DNA of 60,771 nt, the filler included. It is 6 parts of 6 records of this genome, joined end to end, with 100 filler letters (N's around TTAATTAATTAA, not from the genome) between each part and the next. Parts side by side here need not be neighbours in the genome. Positions count along the whole stretch, not along the records: positions 34,337 to 40,628 come from SRR31156797_27767; 5 more parts are not named here. One strand, 5' to 3'. The position numbers and the translations under genes are program-made. Position 1 is the stretch's first letter; each line of letters begins with the position of its first letter. Below, one piece after another: positions 10,881-54,328 of the stretch. Below the pieces are notes generated by a model. That model saw only the letters and a program-made list of their open reading frames with translations, ran no database searches and was not told the origin of the DNA.

Positions 10881-13160
10881 TTAGATAGCTAAAGCTTCTA
10901 GCCTCGCGTAAGCAGCAAGCAGCACCATTTCTCCATGGTCATCAAAGAGCACGGTGAGGCGCCCCTGCTTCTTGTCCGTGATCGCAGTGACAGTCCCGGC
11001 GCCAAAGGTGGGATGGAAGACCATCAGGCCTTCACAGATATCTAATATCGTAAGAAATTTGGGCTGCTCTGTGGGGGAACTGGTTGTTGCCTTTTTTTGA
11101 ATTAGTTTCGTTTTGACTCCAAGAGCCTGAAGGTAACTCTCAGCCATAAGCACTTCATCGGCTGCAAGGTTCTTACCTTTAGATTTTTTAGACAATGAGC
11201 TGCCAAGGGCCCTTGAAAGACCAATATTTGCTTCATACAAGAACCTACTGGCCCGAAGAGTCCCGGTAGGTAGTTTACTAAAATTCTGTGTTATGTTTCG
11301 TTTCAGTTTCGCGTCCGTGGGATGAATGCATGCGACCTTTTCTATCCCCCGGGTTAGAGCCACGTAAAACAGCCGCCGCTCATCCTCAAGGCTGCCATCT
11401 TGTTCCCGCTCCTTATAAAATGGAAAACTATCATTTTCAAGCCCTGGCAGAATGACGAGAGGCCACTCTAGCCCTTTTGCTCTGTGGATGGAAGTAAGGA
11501 GAAGAGTTTCTTCATGTAAACCATTTGTTTCCTGCTGCAACTCATTTACCTTATCAATCAAACCTACCATTGTCAGATTATGAATGGTGGCAAAATTGAT
11601 AAAGGCTTTGCAGGTTTTTACTCTGTTTTCGGCAGTTGCAGCGCGGGCGGAAAAAGAGTGATAAAACTCATATAGTTTGAGCTTCTCCACAAGTTTATTA
11701 AGAAAAGGTCCTGCCATCCCTGACCGACCGTGGATTTGGAGCCATCTCCAGGTTTCAGCAGCCTCACGAAACCGCTTCTTTATAAATGGTGGAACCTCGC
11801 CGTTACACCATTCATTGAGTACTTCTCCACCCTTGTTAAGATCCTGGCTGATGGTAGTCGCAAGAGTCGTAATTTCTTCTCTACGAACCCCAAGATGTGG
11901 CTGGGAAAACATCGCTTCCAATTGCTTCTGGCGATTTTCGGAAGGATCGTCAGCAAGGACTCCAAGCCCTAGCTTGAGGTACCCCATTAAGGCAGTAATT
12001 TCTTTACAGTCAAATACATCGGCACCGCCCTCAAGGCGATAAGCAATACCTGCCTCCAGTAGAGCAAGCTCCACCGGAACCGTCTGTGCAAATAGGCGGA
12101 CAAGAACCGCTGCTTCCGTGAGGGATCTGCCGGCAGCCTTCCAGGCAACAATCTCCTGCAACACACCTTTTCCACTTTCCTCCTCAATGCAGGAAAGTTC
12201 CGTATGGCTAGTTGATTCGTGGGAAACGCATATCTTTTTGTCACGCTTCCTATTGTTTGCGATCAAGTGATTGGCAGCAAGCGAGACCTGGTGACCATAG
12301 CGAAAGGTATAAGAAAGCTGGTAATTCGTAGGGTTTGTAAAGTCCTTTGCAAACTGTTTCGTTATATATTCCGGCTGGGCCCCTCTCCACTCATAAATAC
12401 ACTGGTCGACATCGCCTACAACCATAACCTTCGCCCGCGTTCCCGCTACGGTCTTAATGAGTTGCTGCTGGCATTCATTAATATCCTGATATTCATCAAT
12501 AATGATATGCTCGACCCTATTGGTTACCCATCTCGAGAGGTCATCGCTACCAAGCATTGCCATCAATGGCTCATATATTAGATCCGAGAAGAAGCGGATT
12601 CGCTCTTTTTTTCTGGCCGCCTCAAATTTTCGAAATGCTTCAGGAAAAAAATGCAGACGGGAAGAAAAGTCGAGTTCACGAAAAATATTTTGAGGCCCTC
12701 GAACTGTAGACTTTACCAGGTCAACGAAATTGAGAAACTCTCCAATCTCGTCTCCCATGAGAAAACCATCCTCTTCTCCTGAATCACGGTAGGCTTCGTT
12801 TGCTACTTTTCTGGCAATTTTTTCCTGAATGTAGTCTTCGGTTACAAGTCGGTATTGGGGCAAGGCGCCCTTTTGGGAGAAACTCTTTACCAGGCGCAAG
12901 CCAAAGGAATGGAAGGTACGAACTTCTGGTAGAGGTTTATTCAGGTGAGAAAGGTGTTTTTCCATCGCCTCTTGAAAGGCATCACGGGCAGAACGGTTAA
13001 ACATCAGGATCAGGATGTTTTCGGCCACAGCACCAGACTTCAGTAGATGACCAAGCCTTGCCACCATTGTAGTGGTTTTACCAGAACCTGCAACTGCGCT
13101 AACACGGGCATGCCCGCCGCTATGTTCTACTATACGTAATTGTTCGCTGGTCAGGTTCAT
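10881..13160 (-). CDS. UvrD/Rep/PcrA family SF1 helicase
   Basis: AVAGSGKT, IDEYQD, VGDVDQCIYEWRGA, SIHRAKGLEW, ERRLFYVALTR; C-terminal Tudor-like HPTFGAG. Confidence 0.95.
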   Translation of the reverse strand: MNLTSEQLRIVEHSGGHARVSAVAGSGKTTTMVARLGHLLKSGAVAENILILMFNRSARDAFQEAMEKHLSHLNKPLPEVRTFHSFGLRLVKSFSQKGALPQYRLVTEDYIQEKIARKVANEAYRDSGEEDGFLMGDEIGEFLNFVDLVKSTVRGPQNIFRELDFSSRLHFFPEAFRKFEAARKKERIRFFSDLIYEPLMAMLGSDDLSRWVTNRVEHIIIDEYQDINECQQQLIKTVAGTRAKVMVVGDVDQCIYEWRGAQPEYITKQFAKDFTNPTNYQLSYTFRYGHQVSLAANHLIANNRKRDKKICVSHESTSHTELSCIEEESGKGVLQEIVAWKAAGRSLTEAAVLVRLFAQTVPVELALLEAGIAYRLEGGADVFDCKEITALMGYLKLGLGVLADDPSENRQKQLEAMFSQPHLGVRREEITTLATTISQDLNKGGEVLNEWCNGEVPPFIKKRFREAAETWRWLQIHGRSGMAGPFLNKLVEKLKLYEFYHSFSARAATAENRVKTCKAFINFATIHNLTMVGLIDKVNELQQETNGLHEETLLLTSIHRAKGLEWPLVILPGLENDSFPFYKEREQDGSLEDERRLFYVALTRGIEKVACIHPTDAKLKRNITQNFSKLPTGTLRASRFLYEANIGLSRALGSSLSKKSKGKNLAADEVLMAESYLQALGVKTKLIQKKATTSSPTEQPKFLTILDICEGLMVFHPTFGAGTVTAITDKKQGRLTVLFDDHGEMVLLAAYARLEALAI

Positions 13161-21687: not shown

Positions 21688-21787
21688 NNNNNNNNNNNNN
21701 NNNNNNNNNNNNNNNNNNNNNNNNNNNNNNNTTAATTAATTAANNNNNNNNNNNNNNNNNNNNNNNNNNNNNNNNNNNNNNNNNNNN
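21688..21787. other. Artificial contig spacer
   Basis: N44-TTAATTAATTAA-N44. Confidence 0.99.
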
Positions 21788-34236: not shown

Positions 34237-34336
34237 NNNNNNNNNNNNNNNNNNNNNNNNNNNNNNNNNNNNNNNNNNNNTTAATTAATTAANNNNNNNN
34301 NNNNNNNNNNNNNNNNNNNNNNNNNNNNNNNNNNNN
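34237..34336. other. Artificial contig spacer
   Basis: N44-TTAATTAATTAA-N44. Confidence 0.99.
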
Positions 34337-34491
34337 AAAACTCCTCCATCCCCTATTCCTAGTATAGAGTATATCATATCTCTTATGCTTCAGAAAAACA
34401 CAATAAGAAAAATATTCAAATTTATACTTTCCCATAACATAAAAAAAAGAGCCCACATATTCAAATGGACTCAAAAATTTTGATTTCAGAT

Positions 34492-35532
34492 TTATCTCAC
34501 ATAAATTATATATGATTCTTCTTTGTAGAAAATTTCTTTTCCTATTCCTGATATAAAACCTGATAGATTAGTTTTTGGGGATAAGATATCAATCTCCCTA
34601 TTGGTACTATATCTGTTATAAGTCACCCCTTTGTAATGCAGAGTTCCTATTTTTTGCTTAACATATACTTTGAAAGAAATTTCCCTTTCAGTTTGACTTT
34701 TTCTACTTTGCTCTACTAAAAAAAGTATTCTGTCAAGCCAGTTATCTTGAAGTAAAAGCTTTCGAACTTTACCACACTCATTCTTAGTAACATTCCCTTT
34801 ATGAATAGCTTTATTTCTAATATGAATAACTTTTTCCTGCTCAATTCTATTTACAAATGTTTTAAAATCAGAGTTTTCTTTTAATCTTTTCATCAAACCG
34901 CCAAAGGTATCCTTCTTTGAGCTTAACTTATATACTCTTTTTAACTCCAGTTCCAATGCTTTTACATAATTGACATAAGTTCCACTGTAATCAAGTTGGC
35001 CACTTGTTTCATTCAGATAAAGATATTCTGCTGTTGCCAAAGCCATTACACTTTCAGGCAGAAGTCTCTTATAAGTTAATTTGATTTTCTTAAAAATTTC
35101 ATCATAACTTCTTTTTTTAAAGGATTTCTGCTTTTTCTCCTCTTCGAATTTTTCTTTTAGTTTAAGAAGTCTCTTATTTTCACTTCTTAACTGCTTATTT
35201 TCATCAGTTAAATTATTTATTTGATTTTTCGCTTTTTTATCATGATGTTTGTCTATGCTAAAGTCCATAAACATATCAGCTATTTCATTTGTATCTCTTT
35301 GATTCAAACCATTATATTTTTCAGTGCTTAGCGAATCTAATTTCAGCTCAAGTTCTGAATTTCGTTTAAGTAGCTCTTTAACTTCATTTTCAAGTTTCCT
35401 AACTTTTCTATCGTTTAAAGGAGAGTTTTTTATCTTCTTCCCTGTTGTTTTTTCTATTTCTTGTTCTTCCTTCTCAATTTCCTCTTTTTCTTTTTTAAGA
35501 AAAAATTGTTCTATATCTCTCATATCATCCAT
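34492..35532 (-). CDS. Coiled-coil protein with putative HEPN domain
   Basis: N-terminal charged coiled coil; DYS..YVKALELEL..RNKAIH (Rx4H); start at ATG 35532 behind GAGGTG. Confidence 0.65.
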   Translation of the reverse strand: MDDMRDIEQFFLKKEKEEIEKEEQEIEKTTGKKIKNSPLNDRKVRKLENEVKELLKRNSELELKLDSLSTEKYNGLNQRDTNEIADMFMDFSIDKHHDKKAKNQINNLTDENKQLRSENKRLLKLKEKFEEEKKQKSFKKRSYDEIFKKIKLTYKRLLPESVMALATAEYLYLNETSGQLDYSGTYVNYVKALELELKRVYKLSSKKDTFGGLMKRLKENSDFKTFVNRIEQEKVIHIRNKAIHKGNVTKNECGKVRKLLLQDNWLDRILFLVEQSRKSQTEREISFKVYVKQKIGTLHYKGVTYNRYSTNREIDILSPKTNLSGFISGIGKEIFYKEESYIIYVR

Positions 35533-35676
35533 CGTTTTCACCTCTCTAGTATATATTTTCTATAATTAACTATTTATTATTTTTCATATATAAATGTTAT
35601 CATAAAAAAATTAAATTTGAAATAGAAAAATTCAAAGAAAGACAATAATTTTATTCATATAGTTTCCTTAAAAACT

Positions 35677-35871
35677 TCACTCACCTAATATTTCATTAAC
35701 TCTAGTACTAGAAAATTTCCCTGATTTAATTATAAATTCTGAGATACACTCAATACATGTCGCTGTATCTACTGCTTTTTCATATAAGCAAAAGTGTCTA
35801 TGTGGACAAAAATTCCCAACGGCAATCACTTCCAACACATCAAAATAGATATCACTAATTTCATTATTCAT
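35677..35871 (-). CDS. Small Cys-rich hypothetical protein
   Basis: 64 aa with CPHRHFC..TCIEC; overlaps the XRE gene stop. Confidence 0.65.
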   Translation of the reverse strand: MNNEISDIYFDVLEVIAVGNFCPHRHFCLYEKAVDTATCIECISEFIIKSGKFSSTRVNEILGE

Positions 35872-36193
35872 TGAAATTCCTGCCCTCTATCCGCTCATCA
35901 AATGTCATATAGTTGCTTCCTTTCAAGAAAAATCCCGTAATATCACAACTATCGATATAACCGGCAAGCATATATAACATTAAATAGTGAATTCCCAATG
36001 CTTCAGCTAATTTATTTAAAACCAGAGGATTAATAACACTTAGTTTCCCGTTTTCAAGTGCTTTAATATATTCTTTCCTTACCCCTGCCAGATTTGCCAG
36101 ATGATTAACAGTTAACTCTAGCATTCTACGACGTCTATTAATCTGAAACCCCAATATTTCTCTCGACTCATGTGATACAGTAAATCCTTTCAT
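35864..36193 (-). CDS. XRE-family HTH regulator
   Basis: LTVNHLANLAGVRKEYIKALENG..LNKLAEALG; start MKGF behind GGAGGT RBS (109 aa). Confidence 0.85.
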   Translation of the reverse strand: MKGFTVSHESREILGFQINRRRRMLELTVNHLANLAGVRKEYIKALENGKLSVINPLVLNKLAEALGIHYLMLYMLAGYIDSCDITGFFLKGSNYMTFDERIEGRNFNE

Positions 36194-36267
36194 ACATATT
36201 ACCTCCCGCAATTTTAATTTTGGGGGAAATTGTCCTCTCCATAAATCGTCTATAATAATTTTAGTCA

Positions 36268-36307
36268 AAAAATACTTATGGTCGAGCACACGAAGTACTC
36301 GACCATA
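36268..36307 (-). terminator. Terminator-like hairpin in the XRE gene leader
   Basis: Minus strand tatggtcgagtac-ttcgt-gtgctcgaccata-agtatttttt. Confidence 0.55.
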
Positions 36308-36548
36308 TATCATCAACTATTTACAATCATAATTTATCTGTTATTTATGTATTACAAAAGAAAGAAGATTGCTCTCCTAAAGCTTTAATAACCAACAGAT
36401 TTTTCCACAACAAAATTATATGTACTAAAAAATAGGCAACTCTTCAAAGAGTTACAAAACTGAATGTTTGACAAAAAAACGCCGTTTTCTCACCAAAAAA
36501 CTAGGCTGCTCTACTTTTCAAAACAACATCGTTGTGTTATAATTGTGT

Positions 36549-36627
36549 ATAAGTCGTTACATGGTAGTCTCTTACCGTGTTTCGCAACCGGGCTAGAGTA
36601 TTACCAGTACTCTAGTCCAATTTTTTT
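36549..36627 (+). ncRNA. Candidate ~80-nt two-hairpin sRNA, antisense to the XRE leader
   Basis: TGn-TATAAT at 36535-36543; hairpins acatggta/taccgtgt and gggctagagta-ttaccag-tactctagtcc followed by a T run. Confidence 0.55.
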
Positions 36628-36742
36628 ACTTATCACAATGAATTAAATTAATATTAATTCATAGATTATTATTATATTCAATTGTTATAGAGAACTCATA
36701 TAACTACTCAAGCAGTTATAAGTGACAATTCCCTTTATTTAA

Positions 36743-36772
36743 ATTCTAACACAATTTTATAATGAAAATCAA
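36743..36772 (-). promoter_or_regulatory. Putative sigma70 promoter pointing toward the XRE operon
   Basis: Minus strand TTGATT-N18-TAGAAT with TG extension. Confidence 0.45.
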
Positions 36773-36829
36773 GTGGCATTTTTAGAAAATTTGAAAACGT
36801 TTTTGAAATAAAAAGTGTTTAAAAACATG

Positions 36830-36858
36830 ATCCTCTTCGTTATGAAGAGGATTTTTTT
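36830..36858 (+). terminator. Intrinsic terminator
   Basis: atcctcttc-gttat-gaagaggat-tttttt. Confidence 0.6.
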
Positions 36859-36928
36859 GTTATTTACTAGCATATTTAGAAAAATTGCTTAATTGGGAAG
36901 AATAATAGAACTGAGATTTGAATTTTAT

Positions 36929-37451
36929 ATGGATGGGGAAAATGTGGTAGTTATTCTAAAAAATGAATTAATTCAATATTACTCAAATCTAGTAAATGTT
37001 TACTTTTTAGAGTTAAGGGGTCATCCATCAGAATATTATGCGAAATTTAATAAAAGTATAGAAAGTTAAAAATTTGATATGAACAATCAAATAAAAAATA
37101 ATTGATTATTATTTTAGAGAATAGGCAAGCAAGAATAACAGGTAGCCCTGATATCATTAGAAATAGTATTGATAATTTTAATAACTGTCTTAAATATGAA
37201 AGTGATATAAAAACAAAAAATATGAAGAAGCTTTAAACATTTCTCCTAGTTTTAGATTATCTCATTATGTTAAAGGGAGTTTATATTTTCTATTAGGCAA
37301 TGAATCTAAAGCAAAAGAGTCTTTTAATAGATATAAGGACAAGTCGAAAACTTACTTTAGGGACATTGAAAAATGTTTACAAGAAAATAATTTCGAAGAT
37401 CATGATATAAAATTAATTAAAGGTTTTTTTGATAATATTCAAAATAAATAA
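36929..37451 (+). pseudogene. Degraded TPR-protein gene
   Basis: Start-less frame 37206-37451 reads KYEEALNISPSFRLSHYVKGSLYFLLGNESKAKESF (TPR-like); upstream frames broken by stops. Confidence 0.5.
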
Positions 37452-37614
37452 ACTTATTAATTATGCTCAAAATAAAACTTGTAAGAATATACATTAGATT
37501 AAGCAAAAAAACATTTCGAAATCCCAATTAAACATAATTAATTTTGTAAATTATCAAGCTAGTGAAATCATTACGTTATTAACAAAACGCGCGGTGTTAA
37601 TTTTAACTTACTTG

Positions 37615-37643
37615 TTGACAAACAACTTTGAAAAAAGTATAAT
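37615..37643 (+). promoter_or_regulatory. Consensus sigma70 promoter of the sRNA
   Basis: TTGACA-N17-TATAAT, perfect consensus. Confidence 0.9.
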
Positions 37644-37649
37644 AATTTT

Positions 37650-37760
37650 AAGAACATAAACAGCGAGCGTCTAGTCAACGTGAGCTTTGAACAAAACCGA
37701 ACGTGTATGAAATTTGGTAAAAAAGTCATGGAACCGCAGAAATGCGGTTCTTTTATTTTT
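37650..37760 (+). ncRNA. Candidate antitoxin/antisense sRNA (~110 nt)
   Basis: Lies between a consensus promoter and a terminator, no credible ORF; 37702-37721 is complementary to 37855-37875. Confidence 0.8.
37731..37760 (+). terminator. Intrinsic terminator of the sRNA
   Basis: gaaccgca-gaaa-tgcggttc-ttttattttt. Confidence 0.9.
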
Positions 37761-37774
37761 TGAATAAATTTAAC

Positions 37775-37802
37775 TAGACCTTTTTGATTAATATGTTACA
37801 AT
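37775..37802 (+). promoter_or_regulatory. Putative promoter of the peptide/5S-like transcript
   Basis: TAGACC-N16-TACAAT with TGn extended -10. Confidence 0.6.
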
Positions 37803-37888
37803 AGTTTCTGTAGGGAGTGACTCCCCTGCAATATAGCAAGACTGACTATCTTGCTTTACCAAAATTTCATACACGGAGGTGAAGCGTA

Positions 37889-37963
37889 ATGATTGAATCA
37901 ATCATTGGTGGCTTAATAGCTGCAGGTATCGTTGAAATAATACGTTACTTTTTAACTAAGTAG
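37889..37963 (+). CDS. 24-aa hydrophobic peptide MIESIIGGLIAAGIVEIIRYFLTK, candidate type I toxin
   Basis: Translated by hand; strong GGAGGTG RBS at 37875-37881; single TM-like helix with basic/aromatic C-terminus. Confidence 0.75.
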   Translation: MIESIIGGLIAAGIVEIIRYFLTK

Positions 37964-37985
37964 GCTTCGCCTCGTAAGGAACCAA

Positions 37986-38087
37986 TGGCAATTAGGAACA
38001 GGTGATCCACCCGGTAACTATTCCGAACCCGGAAGTTAAGCCCTGAACTGTGACGATACTACGCAAGTGGGAAAATAACTTTTGCCA
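37986..38087 (+). rRNA. Divergent orphan 5S rRNA or 5S-like RNA
   Basis: Conserved core cacc-ggt..ATTCCGAACCCGGAAGTTAAGCC; helix I tggcaa/ttgcca; helix II cagg/cctg; loop-E-like gacgatac/gaaaata; ctac-GCAA-gtgg tetraloop; no 16S/23S nearby. Confidence 0.75.
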
Positions 38088-38092
38088 AACAG

Positions 38093-38139
38093 AAATATAC
38101 CAAAATTATACCTCTAGTATAATTTTGGTATATTTTTTT
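38093..38139 (+). terminator. Long-stem intrinsic terminator
   Basis: 19-bp perfect inverted repeat aaatataccaaaattatac-ctcta-gtataattttggtatattt followed by a T run. Confidence 0.85.
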
Positions 38140-38255
38140 ATAATACTTAATTTAAAAACATCAAATAAAAAAATAGCCTGACTAAAATTAAATTTTAATC
38201 AGACTATTCTTAATCGCTCTTGAGGCGGGGTAGTTGATTGAAAAGAGTAGGATAT

Positions 38256-38555
38256 TCATTTTTCAGAATATATCTCTTTTGCTCTTTCCACCATCTCTTG
38301 CCAATTATTAAATTCTGTATTTTCAGCTACATAAATATCTAGTTCTTCCTCGTCAATATCCTCTAACTCTTCGAAATTTTCCATATCATATCTTATTCCT
38401 GTCAAAAACTCTTCTGTTGAATAGAAGTCAGTATGATCTTCGAAAAATTCATCATTTAATAAAGATTCAATAGGAATTCTTTCAAATAATTGCTCTTTTA
38501 TTACTTCCAAGTCATCTCTTAAATCACTTAAATCTCGCATACTCAAGATCATCAC
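38256..38555 (-). CDS. Small acidic hypothetical protein
   Basis: 99 aa, Asp/Glu-rich, ends T.F.NWQEM..A; AAGGAG RBS; downstream hairpin at about 38167-38208. Confidence 0.8.
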   Translation of the reverse strand: MMILSMRDLSDLRDDLEVIKEQLFERIPIESLLNDEFFEDHTDFYSTEEFLTGIRYDMENFEELEDIDEEELDIYVAENTEFNNWQEMVERAKEIYSEK

Positions 38556-38896
38556 TCCTTTAAATTTTTTAAATTAATAAATCATACGCAAATAAAAATT
38601 TTGATCTAATATAAATGCCTCTTCAAGTTAGTGGATATTGCTTTTAGATGATAAATTATTTCTAGAAAACTTTTTCAAAGTTAAACGATATTTTCATCAT
38701 TTACTTCCTATTGTTGTAGTTGCTTACTCCTCTATATATCAATCATACGTCATTTTATAAGTGATTATCAATAGATTTACTTCTATAGTTTTCATAAAAA
38801 AAATTTTAGTGAATTATACTTTAAAATTTGACTCAAAGCTGAAAACTGTTTACAATATATTTAATGATAAATATCAATAATAAATTTGGGGGGAAA

Positions 38897-39148
38897 ATGA
38901 ACGAAAACAAATTAAAATCGTATCATGTTCAGGCTCAAGTAACTATAGATCTTGAGCTTAAAGCGGAAGATAGCCACGATGCTAAAAAGAAGATGCTACA
39001 ATGGATAGAGGAGAATAATACTTTGGCTACAACATGGGATTGGAGCTTAGAAACTGAAGGTCCTATGGAGGAAGAAGCTTTAACTGAAAGTGAGAGAATA
39101 AAAGAGGCAGCGGCAGAATTGGATAAGAGGTATAAATCTGAGTTTTAG
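38897..39148 (+). CDS. Hypothetical protein
   Basis: 83 aa from MNENK behind a G-rich RBS; TTGACT-N17-TACAAT promoter at 38828-38856. Confidence 0.7.
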   Translation: MNENKLKSYHVQAQVTIDLELKAEDSHDAKKKMLQWIEENNTLATTWDWSLETEGPMEEEALTESERIKEAAAELDKRYKSEF

Positions 39149-39353
39149 CAATAGTTGAGTTACACACAGAAGAAGCTATATTTCATTTATAAAGTAGTTA
39201 AAATGATATTCACAAATGAAAAAAATTTAACAGGAAAGAGTTACTCAAAATAGTATACAGTATTTAAGAGTTGGAATATTACAATTTTTAAAACTACCTT
39301 ATGCTAAAAAATATTTATTGTAAGAATCTGATAATAAATGAAAGGAGATAACA

Positions 39354-40097
39354 ATGAAATATTCATTTTTAACTATAATTTTTATATTCTTTTCATCAAT
39401 CCTACCTGCTCAAGAAACTATAACAGTAGCTTATTTTAATAATTATCCGCCATTTTCTTGGGAAGAAGAAGGAAATATGAAGGGTATATTTATTGATATT
39501 TTAAATGAAGCTTTAACTGAAAATATGGGTATTTCTGTTTCTCATAAAGGTTTCCCCTGGGCAAGAGCTCAGAAATTTGTTGAAGATGGAAAGATCGACG
39601 CATTTTTAACTGTACCTACTCCAGAACGTAAAAAATACACAGAAGTGAGTAAGGAAATTATCGTTAAATCTAAAGTTTCATTGTTTGTACCATCAGGACA
39701 TTCAAAAACTGAGGAAATAAAAAACATAAAAACTTTAGAGGAGTTAAAGCACTTTAAAATGATTACTTACTTGGGTGATGGAGTTGCAAAAAATTTATTT
39801 CATGACTGGAAAAACATTTACTACACAAACACTCTAGATAAATGTTTATTTGTATTAAAAAACGGAAGAAGTGATCTATTCTTACAATCATCTGAGCTTA
39901 CAAATTACAGAATAATTCAACTTGGATACCAAAATGATATTATTGAACTACCCGCTCCTATGGAGCCAGTTTCGTATCATTTTATGATTGGTAAGAAGTC
40001 ATCATTTATAAACATTCTACCGGAATTTGATCAGGTTATTAGAAAAATGAGAGAGGATGAAATAATTGAGAAAATATACAATAAACATATCCGTTAA
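39354..40097 (+). CDS. Family 3 solute-binding protein (orphan)
   Basis: Signal peptide; YPPFSW, GIFIDIL, FPWARAQ, PTPERK motifs. Confidence 0.9.
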   Translation: MKYSFLTIIFIFFSSILPAQETITVAYFNNYPPFSWEEEGNMKGIFIDILNEALTENMGISVSHKGFPWARAQKFVEDGKIDAFLTVPTPERKKYTEVSKEIIVKSKVSLFVPSGHSKTEEIKNIKTLEELKHFKMITYLGDGVAKNLFHDWKNIYYTNTLDKCLFVLKNGRSDLFLQSSELTNYRIIQLGYQNDIIELPAPMEPVSYHFMIGKKSSFINILPEFDQVIRKMREDEIIEKIYNKHIR

Positions 40098-40217
40098 TAA
40101 AGAAGCTTAAATTATAAAAATCCATGTTAACTAATAAATTTTCCAAAATTTCTTGTTTTTAGTATCTTCTAACTTTATAATAAATATAAGAATAAATCAA
40201 AAATATAGAGGTGAAAA

Positions 40218-40601
40218 ATGAGAAAAATAGATATTTATACGATAGAGGGAAAAGAAAATATAGAAGTGGGACCAGATTGTGATGAATGTGTCAGTAATAA
40301 AACTTGCGATGGTGATCTTTGCCCTCCAATGCTAAAGGACATAACTGATTTTATAAATGAGCTGGAGGAACTGAATCTGCTTACTCTAAATATATATAAA
40401 CTCAAAAAAGATAATCACTCGAAAATCGCTAAAGAACTAGAAATCTTAATGAAAAAAAATAAGCAAACATCTAAAATAACAGAAGAAAACATAGAAGATT
40501 TTTTGGATAAATATAATCCAATCATAGCTGTAAATGAAAAAATGACATTTTTTAGAACGATACCAAGTATAAATAGAGTAATTGCTGAGTTAGAGAAGTA
40601 A
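40218..40601 (+). CDS. Hypothetical Cys-containing protein, possibly thioredoxin-like fold
   Basis: CDEC..C..C cluster; PIIAVNEK..IPS C-terminus; GAGGTG RBS. Confidence 0.65.
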   Translation: MRKIDIYTIEGKENIEVGPDCDECVSNKTCDGDLCPPMLKDITDFINELEELNLLTLNIYKLKKDNHSKIAKELEILMKKNKQTSKITEENIEDFLDKYNPIIAVNEKMTFFRTIPSINRVIAELEK

Positions 40602-40628
40602 TCTATAATGAATGTTGTAAATCTTGGC

Positions 40629-40728
40629 NNNNNNNNNNNNNNNNNNNNNNNNNNNNNNNNNNNNNNNNNNNNTTAATTAATTAANNNNNNNNNNNNNNNN
40701 NNNNNNNNNNNNNNNNNNNNNNNNNNNN
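40629..40728. other. Artificial contig spacer
   Basis: N44-TTAATTAATTAA-N44. Confidence 0.99.
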
Positions 40729-47920: not shown

Positions 47921-48020
47921 NNNNNNNNNNNNNNNNNNNNNNNNNNNNNNNNNNNNNNNNNNNNTTAATTAATTAANNNNNNNNNNNNNNNNNNNNNNNN
48001 NNNNNNNNNNNNNNNNNNNN
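47921..48020. other. Artificial contig spacer
   Basis: N44-TTAATTAATTAA-N44. Confidence 0.99.
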
Positions 48021-54228: not shown

Positions 54229-54328
54229 NNNNNNNNNNNNNNNNNNNNNNNNNNNNNNNNNNNNNNNNNNNNTTAATTAATTAANNNNNNNNNNNNNNNN
54301 NNNNNNNNNNNNNNNNNNNNNNNNNNNN
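54229..54328. other. Artificial contig spacer
   Basis: N44-TTAATTAATTAA-N44. Confidence 0.99.

Follow-up and report, generated by a model that had tools for sequence, protein, structure and literature searches.

Why does a stretch of sequence resembling 5S rRNA directly follow a small ORF that looks like a type I toxin gene, and is it a ribosomal gene, the relic of one, or a working part of the toxin mRNA? The DNA analysed here (the window, 60.8 kb) consists of six contigs chained together with N44-TTAATTAATTAA-N44 linkers between them, and the 5S-like element lies on the contig that occupies 34337-40628 (6292 bp, 28.5% GC). The joints of the chain are as follows:

21688-21787, 34237-34336, 40629-40728, 47921-48020 and 54229-54328: N linkers, containing TTAATTAATTAA

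The other contigs of the chain have 44-60% GC, and because their GC content is so different they are uninformative about the host of 34337-40628. This AT-rich contig may be foreign to the rest of the chain or wrongly binned. A second assembly of run X1, which may be the source of this DNA, contains the identical 6292 bases with 0 differences (possibly with the same reads underneath), and pieces of the contig are also found in an estuary metatranscriptome (run X2) and a sediment metagenome (run X3). Depth in X1 is about 40 contig-wide, with peaks of 335, 236 and 176 at 40427-40628, 35177-35386 and 36437-36646, respectively; other contigs have short pieces in common with these high-depth stretches, which resemble short dispersed repeats of the source sample. 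The sequence-only reading of this locus had noted that no 16S, 23S or tRNA accompanies the element on its contig, which is true by a gathering-score Rfam scan and a tRNA scan, for the 6.3 kb that the contig spans. No tRNA was found in the whole window, nor any rRNA at gathering score; the gathering-score Rfam scan of the window in fact listed nothing.

The putative transcription unit would comprise, in order, a tandem sRNA, a promoter, a 5'UTR, a Shine-Dalgarno sequence (SD), a 24-codon ORF, an anti-SD, the 5S-like element and a terminator:

37615-37643, + strand: promoter of the candidate antitoxin sRNA (TTGACA-17-TATAAT, 12/12 consensus)
37650-37761, + strand: candidate antitoxin sRNA, ~110 nt, with its start placed from the promoter
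37703-37721, + strand: sRNA segment complementary to the toxin 5'UTR (predicted duplex)
37730-37751, + strand: sRNA terminator stem, followed by a T run (terminator-like site)
37775-37802, + strand: candidate toxin mRNA promoter (TAGACC-16-TACAAT, upstream TG, 9/12)
37855-37874, + strand: 5'UTR segment complementary to the sRNA, abutting the SD (predicted duplex)
37875-37881, + strand: Shine-Dalgarno GGAGGTG, 7 nt before the ATG
37889-37963, + strand: 24-codon ORF for a hydrophobic peptide (GRAVY 1.34), candidate type I toxin
37913-37941, + strand: promoter-like site inside the ORF (TTAATA-17-AATAAT, 9/12, TG)
37964-37973, + strand: anti-SD GCTTCGCCTC, immediately 3' of the stop codon
37984-38090, + strand: 5S-rRNA-like element (107 nt, 46% GC, short helix IV, GCAA loop)
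38020-38042, + strand: conserved helix III / loop C core of 5S, ATTCCGAACCCGGAAGTTAAGCC
38092-38139, + strand: intrinsic terminator, 20 pairs (20 bp), with its T run reaching 38139 (terminator-like site)

Both of the predicted pairings in the upstream half of this unit are far better than chance. The duplex between sRNA and 5'UTR (19 nt, -28.5 kcal/mol) was equalled by 0 of 1000 shuffles, as was that between SD and anti-SD (-19.7 kcal/mol; again 0/1000). Two 5' hairpins lie between the toxin promoter-like site and the SD, and the ORF ends with a TAG stop at 37961-37963. When the whole 338-nt transcript 37808-38145 is folded, the MFE structure retains the pairing of SD with anti-SD (z -5.59, 0/100 shuffles), and the 5S-like part forms a domain of its own. 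The 24-aa peptide has no family match in Pfam, NCBIfam, PHROGs or PADLOC. As modelled, the ORF, the sRNA and the SD/anti-SD pairing make a convincing type-I-toxin-like module. The candidate antitoxin sRNA lies in tandem upstream, on the same strand as the ORF and not antisense to it, which is an unusual layout for a type I system.

Is the downstream domain truly related to 5S rRNA? The sequence-only reading had called it 5S-like and had suggested a search with RF00001 (5S_rRNA). That search gave a full-length, collinear match to 37984-38090 on the + strand, covering the model from 1 to 120, with a score of 34.6 bits (E 3.7e-5 in a search of 1 kb, or about 2e-3 by our own scaling to the whole window); the gathering score of the family is 38 bits, so that the element falls below it and is seen with permissive thresholds only. 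The permissive Rfam scan of 37400-38400 returned 21 weak matches, and the 20 besides 5S are hairpin look-alikes on terminators, with no trace of 23S among them. A covariance model of short 5S genes (R1, trained on 10 distinct sequences from the 18 metagenomic loci described below) matches the element over positions 1-109 of 109 with 66.9 bits and an E of 8.8e-17, extending over 37983-38091; this model leans towards the element, because its training set was found with an element-derived pattern, and its next-best match in the 60.8-kb window scores 16.7 bits. The latter, at 11511-11615 (-) on another contig, has an E of 0.021, is without the 5S core and is most likely due to chance. The core 19-mer, CCGAACCCGGAAGTTAAGC, is identical in real 5S genes at 120 or more genome loci from many bacterial and archaeal phyla; since it is common to so many, it proves kinship with 5S and names no donor lineage. 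Likewise, pairwise identities of 68-74% to real 5S from five lineages single out none of them as clearly the closest. Judged by these matches, the element is truly homologous to bacterial 5S rRNA and not a chance resemblance, and the domain proposed earlier is 5S-derived by both models. We also considered a remnant of an rrn operon, which is ruled out for the 600 nt upstream, where there is no LSU match even at E values up to 10.

The anatomy of the element agrees largely, although not throughout, with what had been read from the sequence. The shortened helix IV capped by GCAA is present in the model alignments (4 bp plus the GCAA loop), the loop-E-like strands are intact, and the gap between ORF stop and element, first placed at 22 nt, measures 20 nt with the Rfam boundaries. 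Helices III, IV and V are complete. Helices I-III can form, as stated, with mismatches in helices I and II; helix I retains only 6 of its 9 pairs.

One feature that had suggested a mimic, the short GCAA-capped helix IV, turned out to be shared with genuine 5S rRNAs. Scanning metagenome contigs for the 5S core plus a mini helix IV with a GNRA loop yielded 18 loci (L123-L140). Each has a genuine 5S gene, 108-110 nt long, directly downstream of a 23S gene, and the RF00001 scores of the 18 are 64.1-95.5 bits. The 10 distinct sequences among these short 5S genes show compensatory changes at 16 of 28 pairs. The 5S of Treponema saccharophilum, carried on the rrn plasmid pTSrrn (L142), has the same form: 111 nt, a short GNRA-capped helix IV, and scores of 110.8 bits with R1 and 98.9 bits with Rfam. 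Because a short GNRA-capped helix IV is normal in this class of genuine 5S, it is no mark of a mimic. This also carries a caution for annotation, as genuine 5S sequences (108-111 nt) in which a GNRA loop caps a helix IV of 4-5 bp are common beside 23S genes and should not be taken as a sign of a mimic or pseudogene. In two of the rrn loci with short 5S genes the 23S genes are greatly lengthened (L127 1786-7391, 5.6 kb; L128 1442-5966, 4.5 kb), and a group I intron match is found in the first of these (2662-2912).

A second useful comparison is the 5S of Mesomycoplasma hyorhinis (L145 384-489; 106 nt, 75.0 bits with R1 and 64.2 bits with Rfam), whose helix IV is also short, with a loop that is not a GNRA tetraloop in the alignment. 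This gene is solitary: its neighbours are trkA and whiA, the locus has no 23S, and the record contains no other 5S, which means that an unlinked position alone does not disqualify a 5S gene. It may serve more generally as a yardstick for AT-rich, unlinked 5S genes. Our element shares with the M. hyorhinis, Treponema and 18 metagenomic sequences the same three-way-junction layout and helix III / loop C core, as well as a short helix IV (4-5 bp), a similar loop-E region and a length near theirs (106-111 nt); the GNRA cap it shares with the 18 loci and Treponema. It differs from them in its scores (34.6 versus 64-99 bits with Rfam, 66.9 versus 75-125 bits with R1), in having 6 of 9 helix I pairs and A.A mismatches in helix II, in the lack of a nearby 23S, and in the ORF that ends 20 nt upstream. 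On this evidence the element is a degenerate homologue of the natural short-helix-IV 5S, solitary and outside any rrn operon.

How degenerate it is can be gauged against 32 real bacterial 5S genes aligned to R1, with the element as the 33rd sequence; these reference genes were all chosen for their likeness to the element, and the host's own 5S is not among them. The element's R1 score of 66.9 bits compares with 72-125 bits in 32/32 bacterial genes and 53-74 bits in 8 archaeal ones. With RF00001, its 34.6 bits compare with 64.1-117.3 bits in full-length real 5S genes (69.7-117.3 bits in the 18 full-length ones that share its core); the only real gene below 64.1 is L102, which is cut at the end of its locus and scores 43.1 bits. 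The element keeps 22 of 28 consensus pairs, versus 25-28 in the 32 real genes, and its 6 broken pairs (0-3 in the real ones) include four A.A oppositions and the three outer pairs of helix I. Two of the six are also non-standard in real 5S genes (a C.U in Treponema, L131 and L129, and a C.A in helix II of L143-L145), so that the damage lies mainly in those three outer helix I pairs. A MAFFT alignment had given a count of 14/28 pairs, which we attribute to misalignment; the counts used here come from the model-based alignment. The element has also lost 3 of 31 otherwise invariant columns, while 28 of the real genes have lost none, three have lost 1 and one has lost 3. Its best fold with the 5S pairs (-16.6 kcal/mol) lies 9.2 kcal/mol above the MFE of -25.8 kcal/mol, a gap that is 0-5.0 kcal/mol in the 32 real genes. 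Folded alone, its stability is not unusual (z -1.79, with 11/200 shuffles as stable). On each structural measure the element thus ranks last among the 33 sequences in its likeness to 5S, by a margin that is not wide.

Other comparisons speak against decay. At columns conserved in at least 29 of the 32 genes the element differs in 8 of 48, compared with 10 for M. hyorhinis and 7 for Cetobacterium, and its losses of conserved nucleotides are therefore no worse than those in real 5S of AT-rich bacteria. Its 5S-type fold energy, -16.6 kcal/mol, is practically that of the M. hyorhinis 5S (-16.7 kcal/mol). Finally, the element has 46% GC within a contig of 28.5%, with both flanks equally AT-rich, which would argue for constraint or a recent origin rather than long neutral decay.

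Whether the element is made together with the toxin ORF or separately depends on the signals around it. The strong terminator said to follow immediately is indeed there, as a 20-pair stem and T run from 38092. The terminator scan found no terminator-like site between 37761 and 38092, and with none between ORF and element, a single transcript is favoured; taken together, the promoter and terminator positions favour co-transcription of the element with the ORF. The sequence-only reading had further held that there is no room for a promoter or terminator between the two. The 20-nt gap is in fact too small for a promoter, but within the ORF itself (37913-37941) there is a promoter-like site whose score equals that of the presumed toxin promoter, 37775-37802. 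In this AT-rich stretch such sites are about as frequent as expected by chance (9 sites, against an expectation of 7.1 +/- 2.3), and 37775-37802 is a candidate toxin promoter by virtue of its position. A separate 5S-like transcript could start from the site inside the ORF.

The explanation that we favour, tentatively, is that a type-I-toxin-like mRNA has, as its 3' end, a solitary 5S copy that is decaying and plays only a passive part. Given its location inside the toxin-like transcription unit, we infer that the element is most likely transcribed as the tail of this mRNA. It would have originated as an orphan 5S copy with its own terminator, of a kind that has been reported beside variable islands: a '3+1' 5S is described for Francisella (PMC3479022), and plasticity zone 2 of Helicobacter pylori 26695 is described as flanked by orphan 5S rDNA (PMC1245399). 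As far as these descriptions go, our element resembles those orphan copies and fragments in being solitary and away from 16S and 23S, and perhaps in having variable, island-like surroundings; it differs from them in that, in the parts of those reports on which the comparison draws, they appear as genes, fragments or flanks with no link to a toxin mRNA. The sRNA/toxin cassette would later have come to lie beside the orphan copy, whose present role would most likely be that of a structured 3' end and terminator carrier, presumed passive. The translational lock would be the anti-SD that precedes the element, not the 5S fold, which would be eroding under AT pressure. The GC content and the modest loss of conserved nucleotides described above fit this account less comfortably than do the weakened helix I and the low scores.

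A different account, which we regard as doubtful, is that the element is a working, unlinked 5S gene (or one of several) whose host is an AT-rich bacterium of a divergent lineage. Its promoter would lie within the ORF or further upstream, maturation would release the 5S RNA from the transcript, and the toxin module would lie in its leader or serve to maintain the locus. In favour of this, the element matches 5S from end to end in collinear order, with helices III, IV and V and the loop-E-like region preserved, and the losses at conserved columns and the 5S-type fold energy fall where those of real AT-rich 5S genes do, the latter equalling that of M. hyorhinis, whose gene between trkA and whiA shows that solitary 5S genes exist. 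The promoter-like site at 37913-37941 and the elevated GC content (46% in a 28.5% GC contig) are both in keeping with such a gene, as is the terminator directly 3' of the element, since 5S genes usually have one directly downstream. These points have to be set against the lowest R1 score of the 33 sequences (66.9 versus at least 72 bits), an RF00001 score about 30 bits under that of the lowest intact real 5S measured, a helix I with 6/9 pairs, 6 broken pairs where real genes have 3 at most, a non-5S fold favoured by 9.2 kcal/mol, and the loss of three columns that are invariant in the 32 bacterial genes.

The third account follows a proposal of the sequence-only reading and gives the element a function within the toxin mRNA. 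As an exapted 5S-derived domain, it would be cleaved by the cell's 5S-maturation nuclease or bound by uL18/uL5, so that the mRNA would lose its 3' end or have it remodelled; this would expose the anti-SD to 3' exonucleases and thereby couple toxin translation, or mRNA decay, to ribosome assembly. In a bolder variant the transcript may be bifunctional, with a variant 5S RNA as a second product besides the toxin mRNA. It is the geometry that speaks for this mechanism, which is neat and which we consider unlikely. The anti-SD (37964-37973) sits precisely between stop codon and element, and with this placement cleavage just where the 5S-like fold begins would put the lock at an exposed 3' terminus. 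The element is also a separate domain in the MFE structure of the whole transcript, its GC content is well above that of its surroundings, and its best-kept parts are the helix III / loop C protein-binding core and the loop-E-like region, with helix I weakened. There are precedents for the general scheme in hok/Sok and aapA1/IsoA1, type I systems in which long-range pairing keeps the toxin mRNA locked until 3' processing activates it. Like these, the present locus is predicted to combine a small hydrophobic peptide, a sequestered SD, a complementary sRNA and a structured 3' end; unlike them, it has a tandem upstream sRNA, a 5S-derived 3' domain and a peptide with no match among known toxin families. 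A precedent of another sort is the tufB operon of E. coli, in which tRNA genes are co-transcribed with an mRNA and cut out by maturation nucleases: there too a stable-RNA fold sits on a coding transcript, as it putatively does here, but those tRNAs are fully functional whereas the 5S is degenerate.

Several findings weaken the case for such an exapted domain. The features that had seemed specific to a mimic are ordinary in genuine short 5S genes, and the 20-pair terminator alone would stabilise the 3' end. The arrangement was seen once: no second juxtaposition of a toxin ORF with a 5S-like element was found in our searches of plasmids, phages, and viral, metagenome and genome contigs, and with no relatives found there is no covariation for the element. 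By blastn, the whole contig had no match among plasmids and phages, and the 107-nt element none among phages; among plasmids the element matched 21 records, in each case only through the conserved core of ordinary 5S genes, the best of them being that of Treponema saccharophilum (69% of the query, 75% identity). An exact 36-mer of the element was absent from the viral, metagenome and genome contigs scanned, and shorter patterns were absent from the viral contigs. Two matches to a looser helix-IV pattern in viral contigs were rejected as chance, both being in coding DNA. The 19-mer core in genome contigs led, among the matches listed, only to ordinary 5S genes, and the Ilyobacter, Cetobacterium, M. 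hyorhinis and Treponema records held no orphan 5S-like copies beyond the ordinary genes. The literature searched (articles without their supplements) yielded no system of this kind, that is, no TA mRNA with an rRNA-derived domain. Where 5S rRNA appears in papers on type I TA systems, our guess is that it most likely serves as a blot control.

That the element is a chance resemblance or an assembly chimera is very improbable: its score is under the RF00001 gathering threshold and the metagenome contig is short, but the R1 match (E 8.8e-17) is full-length and collinear, real 5S genes have the identical 19-nt core, the second X1 assembly is identical (if possibly built from the same reads), both flanks are equally AT-rich and, with regard to a chimera, the shared 5S core would be shorter than an assembler word of 31.

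What is new here is the joining of known parts, an orphan 5S copy and a type-I-like module, in a single metagenomic case. If the decaying copy is the passive passenger that we tentatively take it for, the locus is a small curiosity, in which an orphan rRNA copy has been reused as the tail of a toxin transcript. If instead the element were recognised by 5S-processing enzymes or 5S-binding proteins, this would be the first TA mRNA with an rRNA-derived sensor domain, and cell killing or dormancy would then be tied directly to ribosome biogenesis.

The surroundings of the element tell us a little about its host. Its neighbours are an XRE-type regulator and small ORFs without assigned function, and neither an integrase nor an attachment repeat was seen on the 6.3-kb contig. 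The SBP_bac_3 protein points only vaguely to Gram-negative bacteria, and reading TGA as Trp did not lengthen the real-looking ORFs. A 349-aa neighbour had no homologue in viral contigs or plasmids. Adjoining the element is the gene for a 99-aa acidic protein (38256-38555, - strand), with its own terminator at 38169-38211 (-); the protein matches the C-terminal part of phrog_2211 (E 6.6e-14). It has 1 homologue among 5.8 billion proteins, and by that single homologue the lineage is barely sampled.

The X2 contigs cover 37067-37486 and 38214-38723; the part between, 37487-38116, is uncovered and carries no weight either way. One of these contigs matches 37215-37440 and then continues with about 255 letters of unlike sequence, which hints that the neighbourhood may be mosaic between strains. 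The RNA contigs from X2 cover the gene for the 99-aa protein in two sequence variants.
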